Shown here: piece by piece, positions 3,662 to 29,383 of the stretch
Numbering within the stretch: position 1 is the first letter of the stretch
Layout of the letters: the number at the start of each line of letters is the position of its first letter
NCBI GenBank assembly: GCA_031316235.1
Contig: JALDRA010000001.1
Coordinates: forward strand, 3,690,001 to 3,722,000
Reading direction: 5' to 3'
Length of the DNA stretch: 32,000 nucleotides
DNA from: Candidatus Scalindua sp.
Lineage (GTDB): Bacteria; Planctomycetota; Brocadiia; Brocadiales; Scalinduaceae
Made by a program: the position numbers and the translations under genes
The notes under the pieces: model-generated
What the model saw: only the letters and a program-made list of their open reading frames with translations
What the model was told of the DNA's origin: nothing
Database searches by the model: none

Positions 3662-3942
3662 ACTCTTTTCATACGGAAATGTTGTTCCAGCCCGATCGTA
3701 TCACTTGGGATGGACTCGGCTGGAGAGCATGATGCGCGTAACCTGATGCATGAGAATTGTCATTGTAAGCAATTGTAATGCAGGAAGTTAATAGAAACAG
3801 CATCGCTTGATTCGAAACAATTTTAAAAATCAAATAACTATAAATGACCAAAATCATGTTCAGCCATTTTTTCTTCCCCAAACAAAGTTGTTTATAATTT
3901 CGATATTGAGATGTAACTTTAGACAAAAACTTGCTGCGAAGG

Positions 3943-4015
3943 ATCTTGGTTGCAGTCATACTCGCTCAAATTTATCTCGTATTTTATCCGGAAACCATTA
4001 TGAGATGGGTATAGT
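3943..4015. repeat. intergenic repeat family, copy A
   Basis: ATCTTGGT..ATACTCGCTCAAATTTATCTCGTATTTTATCCGGAAACCATTATGAGATGGGTATA. By hand alignment ~50/56 identical to copy B (13072-13143). Confidence 0.65.
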
Positions 4016-4313
4016 ATAATTTTTCCGAGTAGCCGGAATCGTAACTTATACCATACTGAAAGGTTTCTTTTCAATATAATTTGAAAATGGATACCCGTTT
4101 TGGCTTGGCATTCATGTACTTATCCGTTGACATTATTTAAATAAATTGATACTATCAAAGTCTATGTCACCCGCATAGTTCTGAGACTTTATCCTTCTGG
4201 TATTACACCCGTTTTTCAAAAGTTTCCAAGAGAAAATAAGCAGACTTTGCTTGGTTTTTATGCCTAATTTCATAATTTTCAGTTCTAAATGACACAAAAA
4301 TTTTTCTAAGGGG

Positions 4314-11637: not shown

Positions 11638-11967
11638 TATATTCTCCCTAAAAAATACGTCCTGGAACAGCTAAATAGTTGAAATTAAAGGCCTGTTACT
11701 ATTGTAGTACTATTCTCTCATCCCACTTGCCAAGCAGCAAAGCAAAATATGTACTTCAATTACAATTGTAAAAGCCGATCAATCCAACATGATAGTAATA
11801 AGTAAAACAGATGCAAATCTTTCTGGCATACTGAGTTGTAATGAAATTACTAAACAAGCAAACAACATGCCAAAAGTATGTTAAACTGTATAAGTCTATA
11901 AAACAATGAAGTTTACACAGTATGATTCTTTTTGGTTACTTTTCATAAGCCTTTTTCGTCTGATGAA

Positions 11968-11986
11968 GTATGCCAAGATGGCATAC
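11968..11986. promoter_or_regulatory. perfect palindrome GTATGCCA-AGA-TGGCATAC ~330 nt upstream of dnaK (candidate operator)
   Basis: 8-bp perfect inverted repeat with a 3-nt spacer. Related half-sites are TGGCATAC (11824-11831) and CATGCCAAAAGTATG (11866-11880). Confidence 0.3.
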
Positions 11987-12161
11987 TCGCTGGTGCAATA
12001 GTTAGCGATTATCTGGTGAGATGTTGACGAAGAGATGAACAGTAACAGTAGCTATACTCAAACGATTCGATTTTAGAGGTATCCAAAAACGAAGGCCTGT
12101 TTGCTGGTATCCCCGGACCAGATGCCGAGGACTTTCCCCTGACAAAAAGGGCCGAGGACTT

Positions 12162-12216
12162 TACTCGCTCAGCTTTTTCTCGGATTGCATCCGAAAGCTA
12201 TTATAAGATGAGTATA
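12162..12216. repeat. intergenic repeat family, copy C
   Basis: TACTCGCTCAGCTTTTTCTCGGATTGCATCCGAAAGCTATTATAAGATGAGTATA. By hand alignment ~46/56 identical to copy B. The central hairpin TCGGAT-nnn-ATCCGA is retained with a different loop. Confidence 0.6.
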
Positions 12217-12240
12217 TTTTCAGATCAAGGCAATTTTGGA

Positions 12241-22609: not shown

Positions 22610-22683
22610 GGGCGATTAGCTCAGTTGGCTAGAGCACTTGCTCGACAAGCAAGGGGTCACTGGTTCGAGTCCAGTATCGCCCA
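22610..22683 (+). tRNA. tRNA, anticodon loop TCGACAA = Val(GAC)-like; integration target of the downstream island
   Basis: Cloverleaf by eye: acceptor GGGCGAT/ATCGCCC, D-arm GCTC-AGTTGGCTA-GAGC, anticodon arm CTTGC-TCGACAA-GCAAG, variable loop GGGTC, T-arm ACTGG-TTCGAGT-CCAGT, discriminator A. CCA is not encoded. Confidence 0.8.
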
Positions 22684-22711
22684 TATTGTCTCACAAGGAC
22701 TTATGATAAAT

Positions 22712-23773
22712 TTAGATATGTTTTGAAACCTCTTTTCTCTCCACTGTAGTCAAATTGTAGTCAACTTTTTCCAAAACCTTTACACAACCCCTTAAACTGT
22801 CAGGACAATGGTGTGCATAGCGTTGTGTCATTTTCATGTTTTTGTGACCAAGCAGCTTTGAAATTGAATAGAGATCGACTCCATTCCGGGTTAACCTGGT
22901 TGCAAAAGTATGACGCAGACAGTGAAAAGTAAAATCCCTTATCCCGGCTTTCTCTAAAGCATAAGCAAATGCCCTGATAAGGTTGCGTTTAAAAATCTTT
23001 GTTCCTGCATTACTAGAAAATACTAAATCGTTTTTGATATTTCTTACCTTTTCACCAGACTTCTTTTGAAGAACACCCAACGCAATACTATTTAGGGGCA
23101 AAGTTTTCGGTTTACCATTCTTTGTCTCTTTAATGAGTATAGTTTTACGGAATAAATCCACCCGAGACCATTCAAGAGAAAGTAGTTCATCCTGCCGAAG
23201 TCCTGTATTTAGACCAAAGATGATTATATCCCTAAGCCAAAGGGGGGAAGCATCAAGAAGCCTTCTTTCCTCGTCTTCTGTCAGCCAACGATCGACCTCA
23301 TTGTCCTCTTTCTCTTTTTGCACTTTGGAAACAGGGTTATCTTTTAGCCACTCCCACTCCTTAACCGCTAAATTGAAAGCCTTTGAAAGCATATAAAGTT
23401 CACGGTTAATGGTAGATGGGCTTGCGCCCTTATCTCTCCGATATACTTTATATGGAGCAATTACCTTTGGTGTTATAGAGCTTAAAACCTGGTTACCAAA
23501 GAAACTACCAAGATTTTTTAAATAGTAGGTGTATGCTTTCCGGGTATTAACTGATACTGTTGGGGCATACTCCTTCATAAACTTCTCCATCATATCGTTG
23601 AAAGTTTTCCTGCTGCTAATGGGCTTCTCTAAATACTTATCTTCAACAAGTTCAGTCCTTATTTTTGCCTCTATTGATTGAGCAAGTTTCCTGTCGGTAG
23701 TCTCAAGGCTCTTCTGAATCTTTCTACCATTATGTCTAATACACGTCCACCAAACACCACTTCGTTTAAACAT
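22712..23773 (-). CDS. int: tyrosine-type site-specific integrase
   Basis: Catalytic C-terminus HCLRHTFATRL...LLGHKNMKMTQRYAH (H-x-x-R...Y). A strong SD GGAAGGAGG lies 5 nt upstream of the ATG at 23773. The ORF is also open to 23827, where an ATG would overlap the xis stop as TAATG. Confidence 0.9.
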   Translation of the reverse strand: MFKRSGVWWTCIRHNGRKIQKSLETTDRKLAQSIEAKIRTELVEDKYLEKPISSRKTFNDMMEKFMKEYAPTVSVNTRKAYTYYLKNLGSFFGNQVLSSITPKVIAPYKVYRRDKGASPSTINRELYMLSKAFNLAVKEWEWLKDNPVSKVQKEKEDNEVDRWLTEDEERRLLDASPLWLRDIIIFGLNTGLRQDELLSLEWSRVDLFRKTILIKETKNGKPKTLPLNSIALGVLQKKSGEKVRNIKNDLVFSSNAGTKIFKRNLIRAFAYALEKAGIRDFTFHCLRHTFATRLTRNGVDLYSISKLLGHKNMKMTQRYAHHCPDSLRGCVKVLEKVDYNLTTVERKEVSKHI

Positions 23774-24072: not shown

Positions 24073-24127
24073 TAGGTTTTATTTCTGATTTTATTTAATT
24101 CTATTAGTTATTATTATATATATAATA

Positions 24128-24160
24128 ATACTGTACACCCCCTGTACTTTAGTACCTTGT
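24128..24160. repeat. direct repeat DR1 (promoter/operator-like), upstream of xis
   Basis: ATACTGTACACCCCCTGTACTTTAGTACCTTGT next to an alternating-AT tract. It matches DR2 at 28103-28137 (30 identical positions, 3 substitutions, one 2-nt indel, by hand). Confidence 0.7.
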
Positions 24161-25025: not shown

Positions 25026-25084
25026 TTCTCAGATACCTCCCATCTAATTTTATGTTATAAATATTAAAGTAAGTACAGTTTGCT

Positions 25085-25300
25085 ATTTAAAGGGGCGCTG
25101 CCCCTCGTCGCTCACTTCGTTCGCTCCTCACCCCGGAGTTTTCTCCACCAGAGGCACCAGTCCCTCTCAACGCATCCTATTTTTTATATCCAGCCAACGG
25201 AGACCGTGCCTCTTGGTGTCGCAGGTTGCTCTCCAGCATTGCCTGCTCTAAGTTTTAGCCTCCGCTGGCTTGTAATTATTGCTTACGCATTTTTATAAAA
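25085..25300 (-). ncRNA. candidate structured non-coding RNA (GC-rich patch between Zn-ribbon gene and 281-aa gene)
   Basis: No credible ORF, and clearly more GC-rich than the flanks. Helices by eye: 25192-25200 with 25262-25270 (9 bp; one position is G.U only on the minus strand); 25146-25157 with 25206-25218 (12 bp + 1 bulge, crossing the first helix); GGAG-TTTT-CTCC (25135-25146); a terminal hairpin AGGGGC-GCT-GCCCCT (25091-25105) followed on the minus strand by TTTAAAT. Confidence 0.3.
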
Positions 25301-25356
25301 TGAACGTAGAAAAGAAAAAAGTTGTGTTTAATGTGGAAATATACAGTCAATTCAAA

Positions 25357-25376
25357 TTGCTCCACTGCTAGAGCAA
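25357..25376 (-). terminator. weak terminator-like hairpin after the Zn-ribbon gene
   Basis: TTGCTC-8 nt-GAGCAA, followed on the minus strand by TTTGAATT. The stem is short and the U-tract poor. Confidence 0.25.
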
Positions 25377-25402
25377 AAAGCCTCGGTAAATTCCGTCATT
25401 TT

Positions 25403-25615
25403 TTATATAAGATTATGGATGTTTCCTTTCCCTCTATGCCCTGGGATCTTACCAAACCTATAAGGATACAAAGGGCAATTCAGACTTTCACATTTCTTTA
25501 CCTCAGATGTTGACCAGTTAAAGCACTCAAGGCATTGATACCTGATAGCCTTAAGTGGTGTTAATAATACTTCTTTTGTCCCACCATCTTTTGATTGTAT
25601 TACGTGTTTAATCAT
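25403..25615 (-). CDS. small Zn-ribbon protein (CxxC...Cx4C, CPLYPYRFGK motif)
   Basis: 70 aa. The QCLEC...KKCESLNCPLYPYRFGK pattern is common in small phage/island proteins. Its start overlaps the upstream HTH gene stop by ATGA. Confidence 0.65.
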   Translation of the reverse strand: MIKHVIQSKDGGTKEVLLTPLKAIRYQCLECFNWSTSEVKKCESLNCPLYPYRFGKIPGHRGKGNIHNLI

Positions 25616-25818
25616 TTTGCTGATACCGCATAAAGAGCCTGTTTAATTTTTTGAATATCACTGTTTCTATAAAGACGCTGCCCATTATCTAAGGTAATAA
25701 AATCCTCTGCTTTTATCTTTCTTGACTCAAACAGATATGTCAACTTGTGACGGGGGATGTCAAGGATCCTCAATGCTTCAGAAACACTAAATAATCTTTC
25801 TTCCGGTTGGTGTGACAT
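25612..25818 (-). CDS. small excisionase/MerR-like HTH DNA-binding protein (AlpA-like regulator candidate)
   Basis: 68 aa. FSVSEALRILDIPRHKLTYLFESRKI is a helix-turn-helix. SD AAGGAGGAAA precedes the ATG. Confidence 0.7.
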   Translation of the reverse strand: MSHQPEERLFSVSEALRILDIPRHKLTYLFESRKIKAEDFITLDNGQRLYRNSDIQKIKQALYAVSAK

Positions 25819-25876
25819 TCCATTTCCTCCTTATAAAGTAATCAAGAATAAAAATTAACCCTTATACTAAACATGC

Positions 25877-25914
25877 GCTACTTTTGAGGTAGCGATCGCT
25901 ACTTTTGGGGTAGC
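25877..25914. promoter_or_regulatory. tandem palindromic operator upstream of the HTH/Zn-ribbon operon
   Basis: GCTAC-TTTTGAG-GTAGC GATC GCTAC-TTTTGGG-GTAGC. The junction GTAGCGATCGCTAC is itself a perfect 14-bp palindrome. The site lies ~60-95 nt upstream of the ATG at 25818, followed on the minus strand by TAGTAT/TATAAG -10-like boxes. Confidence 0.55.
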
Positions 25915-26021
25915 AAATAAAAAAAGTTTAAAATAAATGGGAAATTTCTACTTTGAATATTGAAGGAAAGGTTCTACAGAAATGTTATATTTGTGGTAGT
26001 ACAATGAATTGAGGTTGGAGT

Positions 26022-27155
26022 TTAGAGTTTCCAGAGTATAGGCTTCTCTGGTTTATAAGAACAATAGGTTCCTATAGTGAGATTGGAAGTGAAGTGTTTC
26101 CAAAGAGAGGGATGATCATTCCTGATTTTATTAAGACTGGTATTGACAGCCTTAGAGACTGCTTTTCGTGCTTTTTCAGCGTCACCTGGAAAATCCCTTG
26201 GACGCCCATTGTTATCTGTTCCGGCACTAAGTGCTTTCTTGATTTGTTCCATTTTATTTACAATTTTAGCTATACTTACATCGCTTTTTGGGATTTCATC
26301 ATCTTCGAGTTCAGCATTGAGGTCATCGTATCTTTTTCGGATGCTTGTAATATATTCTGTGTCCACCATTGCGTCTCTTCTTTCTATCTCTGTTAATGAA
26401 ACCCTATTTTTGATTAAATCTGTTAACTTAAGAACGTGGAATTCTTGTCCAGGAGTTTTCAATAGGAAATATATATATTCCAAACCTTTCATATGTTTAA
26501 GCTGGATGGGTTTATTATCATAAACGATATCCCAGTAATCACCACCACTCTTCCTCCTAAATACATTACCTTTTAGCAATTTCTCATCTGCATACGATGC
26601 CTTTGGTTGCAAGTGTTTGATTTTCTCACTTTGGGCCAGGGACAATAAAGCAGTTGCATCATGTACTTCGTTATTTAGGCTAGGGTCTCTTGATGACTCT
26701 CTGTCAATTATCATTCTTTTAAGTGCATCATGTGCTCCCATGATTGCAAGAATTGCCAAGATGTGATAGTCTTCGATTTGTTTGCCTAGTGTTGGTTTGG
26801 CATTATCCTTAACTAAGCTTATAGCTCTTTCATATCCGTCACGAAGAGTGCTTTCTGGATAACCTTGGTCATAATCTACAAGACTGTTTATTACTTCAGG
26901 ATATGTATCAGCGATAGATCGTGCAGACGCTAATTTTTGTTGCAAGTCTTCATTGTCTCCTGTTGGATAGAAGTTTGATGAAACACCTGAATGGCTACAA
27001 GTATATTTAATGTCCCATATTTCTCTTGCATCCGTTATAACATTCCAACAACTGTATATTGGATGACCCACACATGCTCCTCCGCTAAATAAGAATCCCA
27101 ATAACGGGCACCAATCACTTGCGATAAACTTTTTATATAACTCTTCACTTACCAC
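26022..27155 (-). CDS. hypothetical protein (377 aa): unknown N-terminal domain + C-terminal winged-helix-like domain of an uncharacterised widespread family
   Basis: GTG start with SD GAGGGA. The C-terminal half carries FRRKSGGDYWDIVYDNKPIQLKHMKGLEYIYFLLKTPGQEFHVLKL ... AEKARKAVSKAVNTSLNKIRNDHPSLWKHF..IGTYCSYKP. I recall this pattern from many unannotated bacterial proteins. Confidence 0.7.
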   Translation of the reverse strand: MVSEELYKKFIASDWCPLLGFLFSGGACVGHPIYSCWNVITDAREIWDIKYTCSHSGVSSNFYPTGDNEDLQQKLASARSIADTYPEVINSLVDYDQGYPESTLRDGYERAISLVKDNAKPTLGKQIEDYHILAILAIMGAHDALKRMIIDRESSRDPSLNNEVHDATALLSLAQSEKIKHLQPKASYADEKLLKGNVFRRKSGGDYWDIVYDNKPIQLKHMKGLEYIYFLLKTPGQEFHVLKLTDLIKNRVSLTEIERRDAMVDTEYITSIRKRYDDLNAELEDDEIPKSDVSIAKIVNKMEQIKKALSAGTDNNGRPRDFPGDAEKARKAVSKAVNTSLNKIRNDHPSLWKHFTSNLTIGTYCSYKPEKPILWKL

Positions 27156-27195
27156 TTATCATCCCTCTAAAATGACAACCCTCTATAAATAAAAT

Positions 27196-27236
27196 GGTGG
27201 GCAGGCTGTAGAGGACAGCTTTTCGGGGAGCTCACC
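27196..27236 (-). promoter_or_regulatory. structured 5' leader hairpin (terminator/attenuator-like) just upstream of the 377-aa gene
   Basis: Outer stem GGTGGGC/GCTCACC encloses the inner hairpin GCTGT-AGAGG-ACAGC. On the minus strand it is followed by ATTTTATTTAT and then the RBS. On the plus strand the inner hairpin is followed by TTTT. Confidence 0.3.
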
Positions 27237-27253
27237 CTAGCCCAGATGTACTT

Positions 27254-27282
27254 ATGATATAATTGTGCTTTTAATATGTCTA
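27254..27282 (-). promoter_or_regulatory. putative sigma70-type promoter of the 377-aa gene
   Basis: The minus strand reads TAGACA, a 17-nt spacer, then TATCAT (5/6 and 5/6 matches to consensus). This implies a ~90-nt leader. Confidence 0.4.
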
Positions 27283-27465
27283 GTTTTATTAAAGCAGTTA
27301 GATGCAGAATGCCTCTCAGGTATAACTCAAGCCCATTCTAACCATTCAAATCAGGCATGAATACCTCTGCCTATAAAAACGACAAACATGCCTGTATGGC
27401 CTAATCTGGTCTGTTCTATGCTCTCGCACTCCATATATCATGAGCAATTCATTATAATTTATAAC

Positions 27466-27513
27466 GAAATTTGTCTGAATGGTCCGGCTGTATGGACGAA
27501 TCAGACAAATTTC
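27466..27513. repeat. perfect 13-bp inverted repeat (long stem-loop)
   Basis: GAAATTTGTCTGA (27466-27478) / TCAGACAAATTTC (27501-27513) with a 22-nt loop. The loop can extend the helix through GTCC (27482-27485) / GGAC (27494-27497). Confidence 0.7.
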
Positions 27514-28102
27514 ATGATGAGTTTTTACATGATATTGTAGGAGCCATGAGTAGGTAAGTTACTAGCTATAAGATAATAGCATATTGTGTCGTGTGATACC
27601 TGGGAAGGGTTAGCATAGAAACAGAATTAAAATAAGCTAACTTTTGTAAAACTTGTACGAGATCTATACTTGTTCATGAAAAGGAATGTCTAGTCAGGGA
27701 AATTATAAACTTTTGGTATATAGGCTTATTAGCTTTAGAGATACTATTAGGAAGGTTTATTACTGATCTAATAAAGGGTGTAGACAAAATAACTACATTC
27801 ATATCTACACAAGGAAGAAGATACAGGTAATCAGACAAAACAATATAACCATCATAGATAAGCAACATAATACGTATCAAGAACTATCAGCCTTACATTT
27901 ACACATTTATATAACCTAGACGGGGGGAGTTTCCGGAATGGCGAATTCTTCAGGGAAAATTTTACACGTACGGAATACGGTAGGGGGTGGGGATGAGAAT
28001 AATACGTAGAGTAATACTCTCCCATGACAGACTGGTACCATCTTGAATTATACGTGAATAGGGAGTCCTAAGATTTAGTATATTAATATATATTATATTA
28101 AT

Positions 28103-28137
28103 ATACTGTATACACCCCCTGTACCTGAGTACCTTTT
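28103..28137. repeat. direct repeat DR2 (promoter/operator-like), copy of DR1
   Basis: ATACTGTATACACCCCCTGTACCTGAGTACCTTTT preceded by an alternating-AT tract containing TATAAT-like boxes on the minus strand. Confidence 0.7.
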
Positions 28138-28420
28138 GTATTCTCAATTGATGGTACACCTATACCTTTATTAGATAGTCTATGAGACCAAAGGAATACC
28201 TTGGTTTGATTGTGTGGGTATCTATTGAGGCTATACGTGTGACAGACATATGCCTGTTTTCTGAGGCAGGGGATACCTTTTGATTTGATGAAGTGGTATC
28301 TTGCTTAATCGTGTACTCTTCCGGATGATATAGAAGCCAGCAAACCAGATGTTGCCTATTTTACGTATTAGCATTCTGTTCTAATTTTTTTATTTTTAGG
28401 TGTTGATTTGATCGTTTGAA

Positions 28421-29383
28421 CTATTCCCAATCAGCAAAATCAAGAATATTTTCCAATTGTATTAGATTTAAATGTTCATTGCTTAGTAAATTTTTCCAAA
28501 AAATGTCCCGTTCCTTTTTTTCTCCAGTTCTTTGCCATTCAACGATAAACAATTTTTTTTCATTTCTGCGTTGGATTAGGTTGTTCAAGTGCCGATCTAA
28601 ACCTGAGTATCCAAATAGGATTATCTTGTCAGATTCATCAAAAGCTAACGCTAAATGACGCCAATATGCGCTCAAAATCTTAGAAGACTCGATGATGAGT
28701 GGTTTGTGTTCAAAGTGAGCCAAGACAATATGGCTATCTTTTTCTGGTTTAAGAGAGGCACGGGCATCTCTCATGGTTTTTTCATTGCCCACATACAACG
28801 GCGATCCATGCAAGTGCAGATACCAACCATGTTTATTTACTTTGCGCCTATCTAAGTTTTCTTCGTTAAAACCAGAGCTCGACCAGAAACCATCTATTAA
28901 TGGTCCATTGTAGCCGTCAAGCACGTGATTCTTTGTGAACGCATCATAGAGGAGGTTATCGTAATTTAGTGTCGCTACATGTGATTTGCTTTCATGTATA
29001 AATTTAGCTAATGGAATAATAAAGGAATCAGGAAGCTTGAGATCAGATCGGTGGAAATACAAAGCCACCTCATGAATGAATTTTTTAAATGCAGAAGGTA
29101 ATTGTTTAGCGTCATCGGAAACCCAAGATACACCATGTATTTCAAACTCACAAAGAAATTCTATTGCAACAATTGCATACTGAAGCTTGTCTAGTTCCTG
29201 TTCTGAGCTTGGTGGACGCTTTTCAGATGTTCCTGCGATAGCGCTTTGAATAAGCGCTTTATGTTCCATGCTCAAATAGTCTGTATTGCTCCAGACGCTC
29301 TCTAATCCATTTTGCAACGCAAAATAGTCAGGGTTCATGGCCATACCCAAACCGTTACCCACTATCAACATGGAACGCTTCAC
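28421..29383 (-). CDS. stand-alone SIR2-like domain protein (SIR2_2 / DUF4917 / AbiH-like), putative NAD-consuming defence effector
   Basis: 320 aa with a GTG start and AAGGAAA SD. Motifs in SIR2-like order: LIVGNGLGMA (Rossmann GxG), ATLNYDNLLY (T-x-N-Y-D), YLHLHGSPLYV (catalytic His region), ILFGYSGLDRHL. Confidence 0.65.
   Translation of the reverse strand: MKRSMLIVGNGLGMAMNPDYFALQNGLESVWSNTDYLSMEHKALIQSAIAGTSEKRPPSSEQELDKLQYAIVAIEFLCEFEIHGVSWVSDDAKQLPSAFKKFIHEVALYFHRSDLKLPDSFIIPLAKFIHESKSHVATLNYDNLLYDAFTKNHVLDGYNGPLIDGFWSSSGFNEENLDRRKVNKHGWYLHLHGSPLYVGNEKTMRDARASLKPEKDSHIVLAHFEHKPLIIESSKILSAYWRHLALAFDESDKIILFGYSGLDRHLNNLIQRRNEKKLFIVEWQRTGEKKERDIFWKNLLSNEHLNLIQLENILDFADWE

Follow-up and report, generated by a model that had tools for sequence, protein, structure and literature searches.

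What occupies the 1.26-kb gap at positions 27156-28420 of the window, as we call the whole 32-kb stretch of Candidatus Scalindua sp. DNA analysed here? The gap extends from the GTG start codon of a 377-aa gene (27155) to the stop codon of a SIR2-like gene (28421-28423), and is the junction between the conserved core operon and the variable defence cargo (type I restriction-modification, YgjP, SIR2) of an island integrated at tRNA-Val. It is the longest stretch of the window free of open reading frames (ORFs), the runner-up being ~0.6 kb at 11638-12240. We propose that the gap is probably a composite control region at this cargo/core junction. Among the functions offered in the preliminary description of the locus, a regulatory hub of the element fits best, because the repeat DR2 is duplicated directly upstream of xis-int and the core word AAGGTACT is mostly intergenic in related islands, whereas a long non-coding RNA (ncRNA) was not borne out and an iteron-type origin has weak support.

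The gap is non-coding

The plus strand of the gap contains no ORF of at least 60 aa, and the longest ORF in the gap encodes 68 aa. A Pfam scan of all six frames was empty at E <= 1, and the concatenated six-frame translation matched none of 5.8 billion proteins at E <= 1. Moreover, tblastx of the gap against 96 related loci matched nothing except the 5' leader described below, gene callers put no gene in the gap on the independent contig L001, and no match came from blastn searches of three annotated collections, those of E. coli genomes, plasmids and phages. The translated searches for pseudogene remnants, envisaged earlier as a check, thus found no gene remnant, and the lack of residual protein similarity in any frame rules out a decayed gene. 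The gap is genuinely non-coding, a status that held in every test run, and the original statement that it has no credible coding capacity stands. The accompanying remark that such a stretch is unusual in a compact island needs to be qualified, as long non-coding stretches are likewise present in the two relatives with enough upstream sequence (1.65 kb in L003; 0.86 and 1.0 kb in L002).

A permissive Rfam scan (E <= 5) of the window revealed int-alpA and chance miRNA matches only, with no group II intron, riboswitch, C4/isrK or large ncRNA. The group II intron and large ncRNA suggested as Rfam targets were therefore not found, and an int-alpA leader came up instead. Folding z-scores in sliding windows lie between -2.8 and +1.8 everywhere but in a large palindrome.

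An int-alpA-class leader upstream of the 377-aa gene

The best-supported element of the gap, overlooked in the preliminary description, is an int-alpA-class RNA leader at 27176-27250, the 3' end of which is 20 nt before the start codon of the 377-aa gene. The match to Rfam family RF02996 (27180-27247, minus strand) scores 39.7 bits against a gathering score of 35.8, with an E-value of 5.2e-5 for the 32-kb window. The leader at the equivalent place of L002 scores 46.2 bits and a canonical E. coli copy 64.2 bits, and L003 carries a variant. Alignment to the family consensus revealed the conserved CUAG, CGAAAAGC and GCCUG, in addition to a U-rich 3' tail ending in AGG, in the window and likewise in L002. 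Inside its integrase island, the leader heads an operon whose genes include xis, int and one for a 68-aa MerR/HTH_17-like protein; directly adjacent is the gene of the 377-aa protein.

A covariance model trained on the three Scalindua-type copies (window, L002 and L003) detected further copies in L020, L007, L018 and L006, plus the canonical E. coli copy. These four extra copies end 19-22 nt before the start of 377-aa homologues, and altogether the leader is found ahead of such homologues in six loci besides the window. In the alignment of eight sequences, which was fitted to the model and somewhat favours the structure, 96% of the cells of 13 pairs are paired and 10 of the 13 pairs show compensatory changes. 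None of 500 shuffles reached this level, and slid controls gave 0-3 pairs with compensatory changes. As four of the seven Scalindua-type copies are not reported at Rfam thresholds, they represent a divergent subgroup. We conclude that the Scalindua copies define a new planctomycete subgroup within a known RNA motif, one that covaries and is associated with a new gene partner. Since each copy ends 19-22 nt before the start of one protein family, the leader appears to be cis-acting.

Between the leader and the 377-aa gene, the Shine-Dalgarno sequence GAGGG (27167-27163) sits in the loop of a TGTCAT/ATGATA hairpin, and the 30 bases ahead of the start codon are near-invariant in an alignment with L002, L003, L004 and L005. 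On the other side, a consensus scan identified a sigma-70-like promoter candidate with 10 of 12 matches, which would put the predicted start of transcription at the leader's 5' edge. In L006, L007 and L018, the entire intergenic space upstream of the leader and gene measures 130-280 nt, so that a proximal promoter is to be expected and the distal parts of the gap are dispensable for the leader.

A conserved block and operator-like words in the distal part

Comparison with related islands, another check proposed earlier, showed that the leader and a 60-nt block are kept, whereas most of the sequence is not conserved. The core of the block consists of CTGTCATGxGAGAxTATTACxCTA and, after ~30 nt, the invariant CGTATTCCGTACG (27979-27967). 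The segment CATGNGNNNNTATTAC...GTATTCCGTACG spans exactly 60 nt in three diverged islands (window/L001, L002 and L003), where a block model termed R2 scores 88.7-101.6 bits; the model also matched the end of L004, where the copy is truncated, and none of the other loci searched. The invariant 13-mer forms a hairpin of 5-6 bp followed by a T-run, with one covarying outer pair, and consensus folding of the block region gave a small 6-bp hairpin only, with no larger structure. In a terminator scan, the L003 block hairpin qualifies (6 pairs and T6), and the window copy has 5 pairs with T4 after 7 nt; the same scan detected no intrinsic or canonical sense-strand terminator in the window gap. The block might be bound by a protein, or it might form the 3' portion of a small RNA initiated at DR2. 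One candidate feature of the window's block, the anti-Shine-Dalgarno stretch UCAUCCC, was dropped, being conserved in neither L002 nor L003.

The two copies of DR2, one in the gap and the other before the excisionase gene, share 84% identity over 61 nt (E = 4e-9). The A+T palindrome of copy A has arms of 14 nt that are 100% complementary. Four AAGGTAY repeats, one of which opens DR2 copy A, have this heptamer plus 1-2 flanking bases in common. The window contains 15 AAGGTAY matches against 7.8 expected, and 4 of the 15 are located within 150 nt on one strand. The 8-mer AAGGTACT is enriched about tenfold in five subfamily loci (9 occurrences, compared to 8 in the other ~570 kb of loci), and in L003-L005 it is mostly intergenic, in either orientation. 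By its distribution, AAGGTACT looks like an operator word common to two putative control regions, the gap and xis-int.

The preliminary description held that the gap is not featureless, which is correct, and the words, stems and tracts that it listed are present. AATCAGACAAA stands at 27499-27509 and 27829-27839 with an inverted near-copy at 27470-27480, ATAATACGTA at 27867-27876 and 27999-28008, and the G tracts at 27921-27929 and 27981-27993. The stem GTGTAGA/TCTACAC lies at 27778-27784 and 27804-27810, the end coordinate given before being off by one. The TACGT cores are indeed clustered, with 9 of the 40 window matches within 27871-28367. In addition, TTTGTCTGA and TAATACGTA have three copies each in the gap and none elsewhere in the window. 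Taken individually, neither the 7-bp stem nor the isolated G tracts reach significance. A tandem-repeat finder reported the A+T palindrome and a minor 13-nt repeat (27845-27869, score 36). An invertible switch based on a 12-nt inverted pair (27766-27777 and 28165-28176) was rejected, because the pair is borderline chance and has no equivalent flanking the block in L002 or L003.

A large palindrome of the gap

The only strongly structured segment of the gap is a rod-like imperfect palindrome of ~215 nt (27410-27625), with a minimum free energy of -74.8 kcal/mol on the plus strand (z -5.5) and -64.1 kcal/mol on the minus strand (z -7.6). Its inner hairpin is the perfect 13-bp stem noticed before (27465-27477 and 27501-27513), which gives z-scores of -5.9 and -6.1 on the two strands against shuffles and is followed nine nt past the stem by U5, on the plus strand only. 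The equivalent interval of L003 harbors a counterpart of similar size and nesting (2401-2630; z -9.4 and -6.4). The two palindromes have no sequence similarity to each other, and a search of the window and of 98 loci (668 kb of related sequence) turned up no second copy of either. The window palindrome is bounded by terminal inverted repeats of 13-14 nt (TCTGTTCTATGCT and AGCATAGAAACAGA), with no target-site duplication at the flanks. G.U pairs favour the strand antisense to the core operon (7 versus 2 in the window, 10 versus 2 in L003), a bias for which base composition may account. A third copy of the hairpin-arm word, TTTGTCTGATT, could pair with the 3' arm of the hairpin; as an 11-mer repeat within 1.26 kb, it is only marginally beyond chance.

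Proposed organization of the gap and alternative explanations

We propose that the gap is organized into separate modules. The proximal ~130 nt (27156-27282) would comprise the core-operon promoter and the 5' int-alpA leader, followed by the hairpin that displays the Shine-Dalgarno sequence. The leader most likely acts in cis on the first gene, by control of translation initiation or by premature termination. The distal operator/promoter module, composed of the four AAGGTAY repeats and DR2, would share its recognition word with the promoter region of xis-int. A small DNA-binding protein of the island probably occupies it, either the 68-aa MerR-like helix-turn-helix (HTH) protein, Xis or the 70-aa Zn-finger-like product, and such binding would coordinate both ends of the core module. 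The 60-nt block, which ends in a short terminator-like hairpin, may serve as a protein site or as the 3' portion of a short transcript that begins at DR2. The palindrome might insulate core from cargo transcription, act as a terminator or provide a single-strand DNA site. Directly observed are the non-coding status, the family membership and covariation of the leader, the block's conservation and the statistics of the repeats; all transcription starts, the binding proteins and the regulatory logic are inferred.

Several points weigh against such a control region. Most of 27283-27960 is not conserved, and L004 lacks the equivalent of ~0.9 kb, including the leader helices. L003 and L004 are ~88% identical islands that differ here by an indel of ~0.9 kb (L003 2001-2970 versus L004 259-321), which removes the palindrome and the int-alpA helices of L004 and keeps the block and the ribosome-binding region, so that L004 may be regarded as, in effect, a natural deletion mutant. 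Because of this deletion and the mostly unconserved 27283-27960, much of the gap may be dispensable spacer. The comparisons of the distal part cover three or four related islands. The gap has no excess of promoter-like sites over shuffles (6 versus 7.2), and the promoters, the 5' end of the leader and any small RNA are predicted positions. Moreover, we know of no function for int-alpA RNAs, even in E. coli; the motif was reportedly described in 2017 and is said to have been assigned no function since. The core proteins have no assignable function either, and a role in replication is thus retained, at a very low probability.

That most of the gap is junk or a recombination scar strikes us as unlikely, though deserving of some weight. 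Apart from the leader and perhaps the block, it would be spacer left by cargo turnover, and the palindrome a MITE-like insertion (miniature inverted-repeat transposable element) or a fortuitous inverted duplication. The gap indeed lies at the exact boundary where the cargo of related islands differs, most of it has no detectable similarity to relatives, the ~0.9 kb absent from L004 entails no obvious gene loss, and the palindrome has terminal inverted repeats. Set against this are the lack of gene remnants in any frame, word and repeat enrichments well beyond chance, and the long non-coding stretches that the window, L002 and L003 have alike. Furthermore, the nested palindrome of similar size recurs in the equivalent interval of L003, neither palindrome has a second copy in the loci searched, and no target-site duplication is visible.

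Two explanations of small probability invoke RNA. In satellite phage P4, the left operon has a long untranslated leader that yields the CI immunity RNA. By analogy, a transcript from DR2 copy A (~28075) might run for ~0.9 kb on the minus strand through the block, the palindrome and int-alpA into the 377-aa gene, as one regulatory 5' untranslated region or a processed ncRNA; we think this improbable. It would agree with the direction of DR2, which points into the gap and has its twin before xis, with the terminator scan, with the possible alternative pairing of the hairpin-arm word 330 nt upstream, and with the P4-like nature of canonical E. coli int-alpA islands, which carry C4/isrK immunity RNAs. 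It is at odds with the ordinary folding energies outside the palindrome, the absence of Rfam matches to C4, isrK or a large RNA, and conservation restricted to the 60-nt block, whose terminator-like hairpin and T-run would stop the transcript. In addition, the interval between block and leader is occupied in L002 by genes of the opposite strand, one for a resolvase and one for a 54-aa protein, L004 deletes the stretch, and other leader-bearing relatives have just 130-280 nt upstream. The ncRNA of up to ~0.8 kb from DR2 envisaged in the preliminary description is therefore not supported. Alternatively, the gap could be an RNA-based control centre with a logic like that of P4 immunity, in which a DR2/block transcript, the ~215-nt palindrome RNA or both act on the int-alpA leader or mRNA, a scenario we also rate as improbable.

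The iteron-type origin also suggested there appears very unlikely. In such an origin, the AAGGTAY repeats, with their phase of ~33 nt, would be bound by the 377-aa or 281-aa protein as initiator, the 31-nt A+T palindrome would unwind and the excised island would replicate. Repeats spaced by 33 and 34 nt do adjoin a pure A+T palindrome, two core proteins are without assigned function, and a mosaic relative of the 377-aa gene lies beside a DNA_pol_A gene in L098. The repeat core spans only 7-9 nt, however, and the word also occurs upstream of xis and, among relatives, at mostly intergenic places in either orientation. DnaA-box-like words show no enrichment, the gap having one one-mismatch site, and family and PDB scans of the island proteins detected no Rep, primase or helicase domain. 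Nor is the array conserved, as L003 has one copy upstream of the block and L002 none there. With repeats as short as 7 nt, no DnaA boxes and no recognisable initiator gene, support for this proposal is weak.

A caution is that, if the gap is a composite control region, the long ORF-free stretch is a mosaic of small control modules and spacer, and not one large RNA gene. The subgroup in anammox planctomycetes widens the host range and the gene associations of int-alpA. The remaining gap offers concrete cis-elements, such as AAGGTACT, the invariant CGTATTCCGTACG and the large palindrome, in Scalindua islands with defence cargo. The practical value is modest, namely an improved annotation of such islands. 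Should RNA-based control hold instead, RNA would set the expression of the integration/excision operon and give int-alpA a mechanism, in a phylum where the regulation of mobile elements is almost unexplored.

Genomic context of the island

A metagenome-assembled genome (MAG; 4.15-Mb contig) of Candidatus Scalindua sp. encodes a hypothetical protein identical in sequence to the 377-aa protein. After tRNA-Val, the minus strand encodes, in order, a tyrosine integrase, an HTH_17/excisionase (Xis), a 281-aa protein, a 70-aa ORF, the 68-aa HTH protein and the 377-aa protein, followed by the gap; beyond it, also on the minus strand, are the SIR2-like gene, a YgjP peptidase gene and type I restriction genes (HsdR). 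The core module 377aa-(66aa)-264/281aa-HTH_17-integrase is kept in L002-L005, four metagenomic or MAG loci, at ~42% protein identity, and the cargo varies among these islands. For the SIR2_2 protein, located in the cargo beside YgjP and the type I restriction genes, no partner gene was recognised. An apparent second gap at 25026-26021 is occupied by two small minus-strand ORFs within 25403-25818. The 68-aa ORF is weakly similar to MerR/HTH_17 proteins, and many related loci conserve it; the 70-aa ORF, which has a Zn-finger-like CxxC pattern, overlaps the 68-aa gene and was missed by the gene caller on L001. The coordinates are collected in Table 1.

The core proteins matched nothing in PHROGs, NCBIfam or PADLOC, and PDB sequence searches with the 377-aa and 281-aa proteins were empty. 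The AlphaFold models of these two proteins are too poor for searching, with predicted local distance difference test (pLDDT) values of 51 and 33, respectively. Scans of IMG/VR found neither the conserved block nor a relative of the 377-aa protein. Two tandem 18-nt palindromic units, CGCTACTTTTGAGGTAGC and CGCTACTTTTGGGGTAGC, are located at 25876-25914, after the stop of the 377-aa gene and ahead of the start of the 68-aa gene, and look like a candidate operator pair. Window positions 25604-26450, which take in the 68-aa gene and the 3' half of the 377-aa gene, are 81% identical in nucleotides over 849 nt to L098 1987-2830. The L098 element is otherwise different and carries the DNA_pol_A gene, which points to a putative mosaic exchange of the segment.

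The gap is not an att region or an end of the island. Both the partner array of the arm-type integrase sites and the tRNA-Val 3'-end repeat are absent from the window and from the longer contig L001, and the gap is therefore internal to the island. A match of 10-22 nt between 22692-22713 and 27243-27264 was judged to be chance. L001, an independent Logan contig, breaks inside tRNA-Val (window-equivalent 22660), which would fit a fork of the assembly at the attachment site, as might arise if only part of the population carried the island. Arm-type sites equivalent to those of the window lie within the integrase 3' end of L002 (11699-11722) and L003 (6673-6693). In L002, both ends of a related island of ~8 kb are visible (3818-4046 and 11699-11819). 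Its attL/attR is a 44-nt duplication of the cpsB 5' end, and its TGACTACGTTT arm sites stand as five tandem copies at one end (3990-4046) and two at the other, in the integrase 3' end.

Table 1. Coordinates of features in and around the gap (window numbering).
Feature	Position	Strand	Description
tRNA-Val	22610-22683		Integration site of the island
Tandem arm-type integrase sites	22743-22763	-	TGACTACAATnTGACTACAGT (TGACTACART); inside integrase 3' end, adjoining tRNA-Val
DR2 copy B	24104-24158	-	Outside the gap; 32-86 nt upstream of HTH_17/excisionase start (24072)
377-aa gene	26022-27155	-	GTG start
Ribosome-binding region of 377-aa gene	27156-27179	-	Hairpin TGTCAT (27177-27172) / ATGATA (27162-27157)
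int-alpA-class RNA leader	27176-27250	-	Three-helix junction, then U-rich tail and UAGAGG
Sigma-70-like promoter candidate	27254-27282	-	TAGACA-17-TATCAT
Rod-like imperfect palindrome	27410-27625	.	Outer arms 27414-27440 / 27594-27620; inner 13-bp hairpin 27465-27513
ORF 1	27674-27880	-	68 aa, TTG start
Third copy of hairpin-arm word	27829-27839	-	TTTGTCTGATT
Conserved block	27950-28046	-	Core 28030-27967
ORF 2	27962-28159	-	65 aa, GTG start
DR2 copy A	28075-28135	-	AAGGTACTCAGGTACAGGGGGTGTA, then 31-nt all-A+T perfect palindrome (28077-28107)
AAGGTAY repeats (four)	28129-28135, 28162-28168, 28196-28202, 28273-28279	-	Spacings 33, 34 and 77 nt
3' flank of SIR2-like gene	28280-28420	-	One TACGTA word (28362-28367) the sole conserved-type feature; no terminator-like site in scan
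SIR2_2-domain gene	28421-29383	-	320 aa; weak PADLOC matches to Aga_SIR2 and candidate system PDC-S21

Comparison with known systems

The iteron origins of plasmids pSC101, R6K and P1 resemble the gap in having phased direct repeats beside an A+T-rich segment. They differ in repeat length (17-22 nt, compared to 7-9 nt in the gap), in spacing (~22 versus 33 nt), and in the DnaA boxes and Rep gene that the gap is without; the word of the gap is also found at non-origin positions. Of the hallmarks of an iteron origin, the A+T-rich unwinding region is thus present, whereas regular repeats of 17-22 bp and a cognate initiator are not. MITEs and palindromic repeat elements share with the palindrome a size of ~200 nt, terminal inverted repeats and a rod-like fold. 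Unlike them, the window palindrome is a single copy in the searched sequence, has no target-site duplication and has a positional counterpart of unrelated sequence. Compared to the operator regions of integrative elements and temperate phages, the gap is about ten times longer, the island has no repressor gene of a known family, and the binding protein is represented by candidates only. The phased word, its duplication before xis-int and the small HTH proteins encoded in the module are features in common with these operators.

The closest parallel is int-alpA itself. In the E. coli locus L099 (NZ_CP027586.1, 3993-6273), canonical int-alpA lies in a P4-like island together with two C4 antisense RNAs and isrK. 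Such C4/isrK immunity RNAs, found with E. coli int-alpA, are absent from the Rfam scan of the window. The downstream proteins of the E. coli motif are unrelated to the Scalindua ones, and the motif follows the integrase gene there, whereas the integrase of the window is at the far end of the operon. The host also differs, being an anammox planctomycete in the case of the window, while int-alpA is to our knowledge a proteobacterial family. Nevertheless, in both cases an integrase-bearing island has the motif immediately 5' of the first gene in an operon of several genes, and both operons begin with a hypothetical protein (317-377 aa) followed by a 68-aa HTH protein. Both motifs have a three-helix junction, the family's conserved nucleotides and a U-rich tail, and the model trained on Scalindua copies detects the E. 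coli copy.

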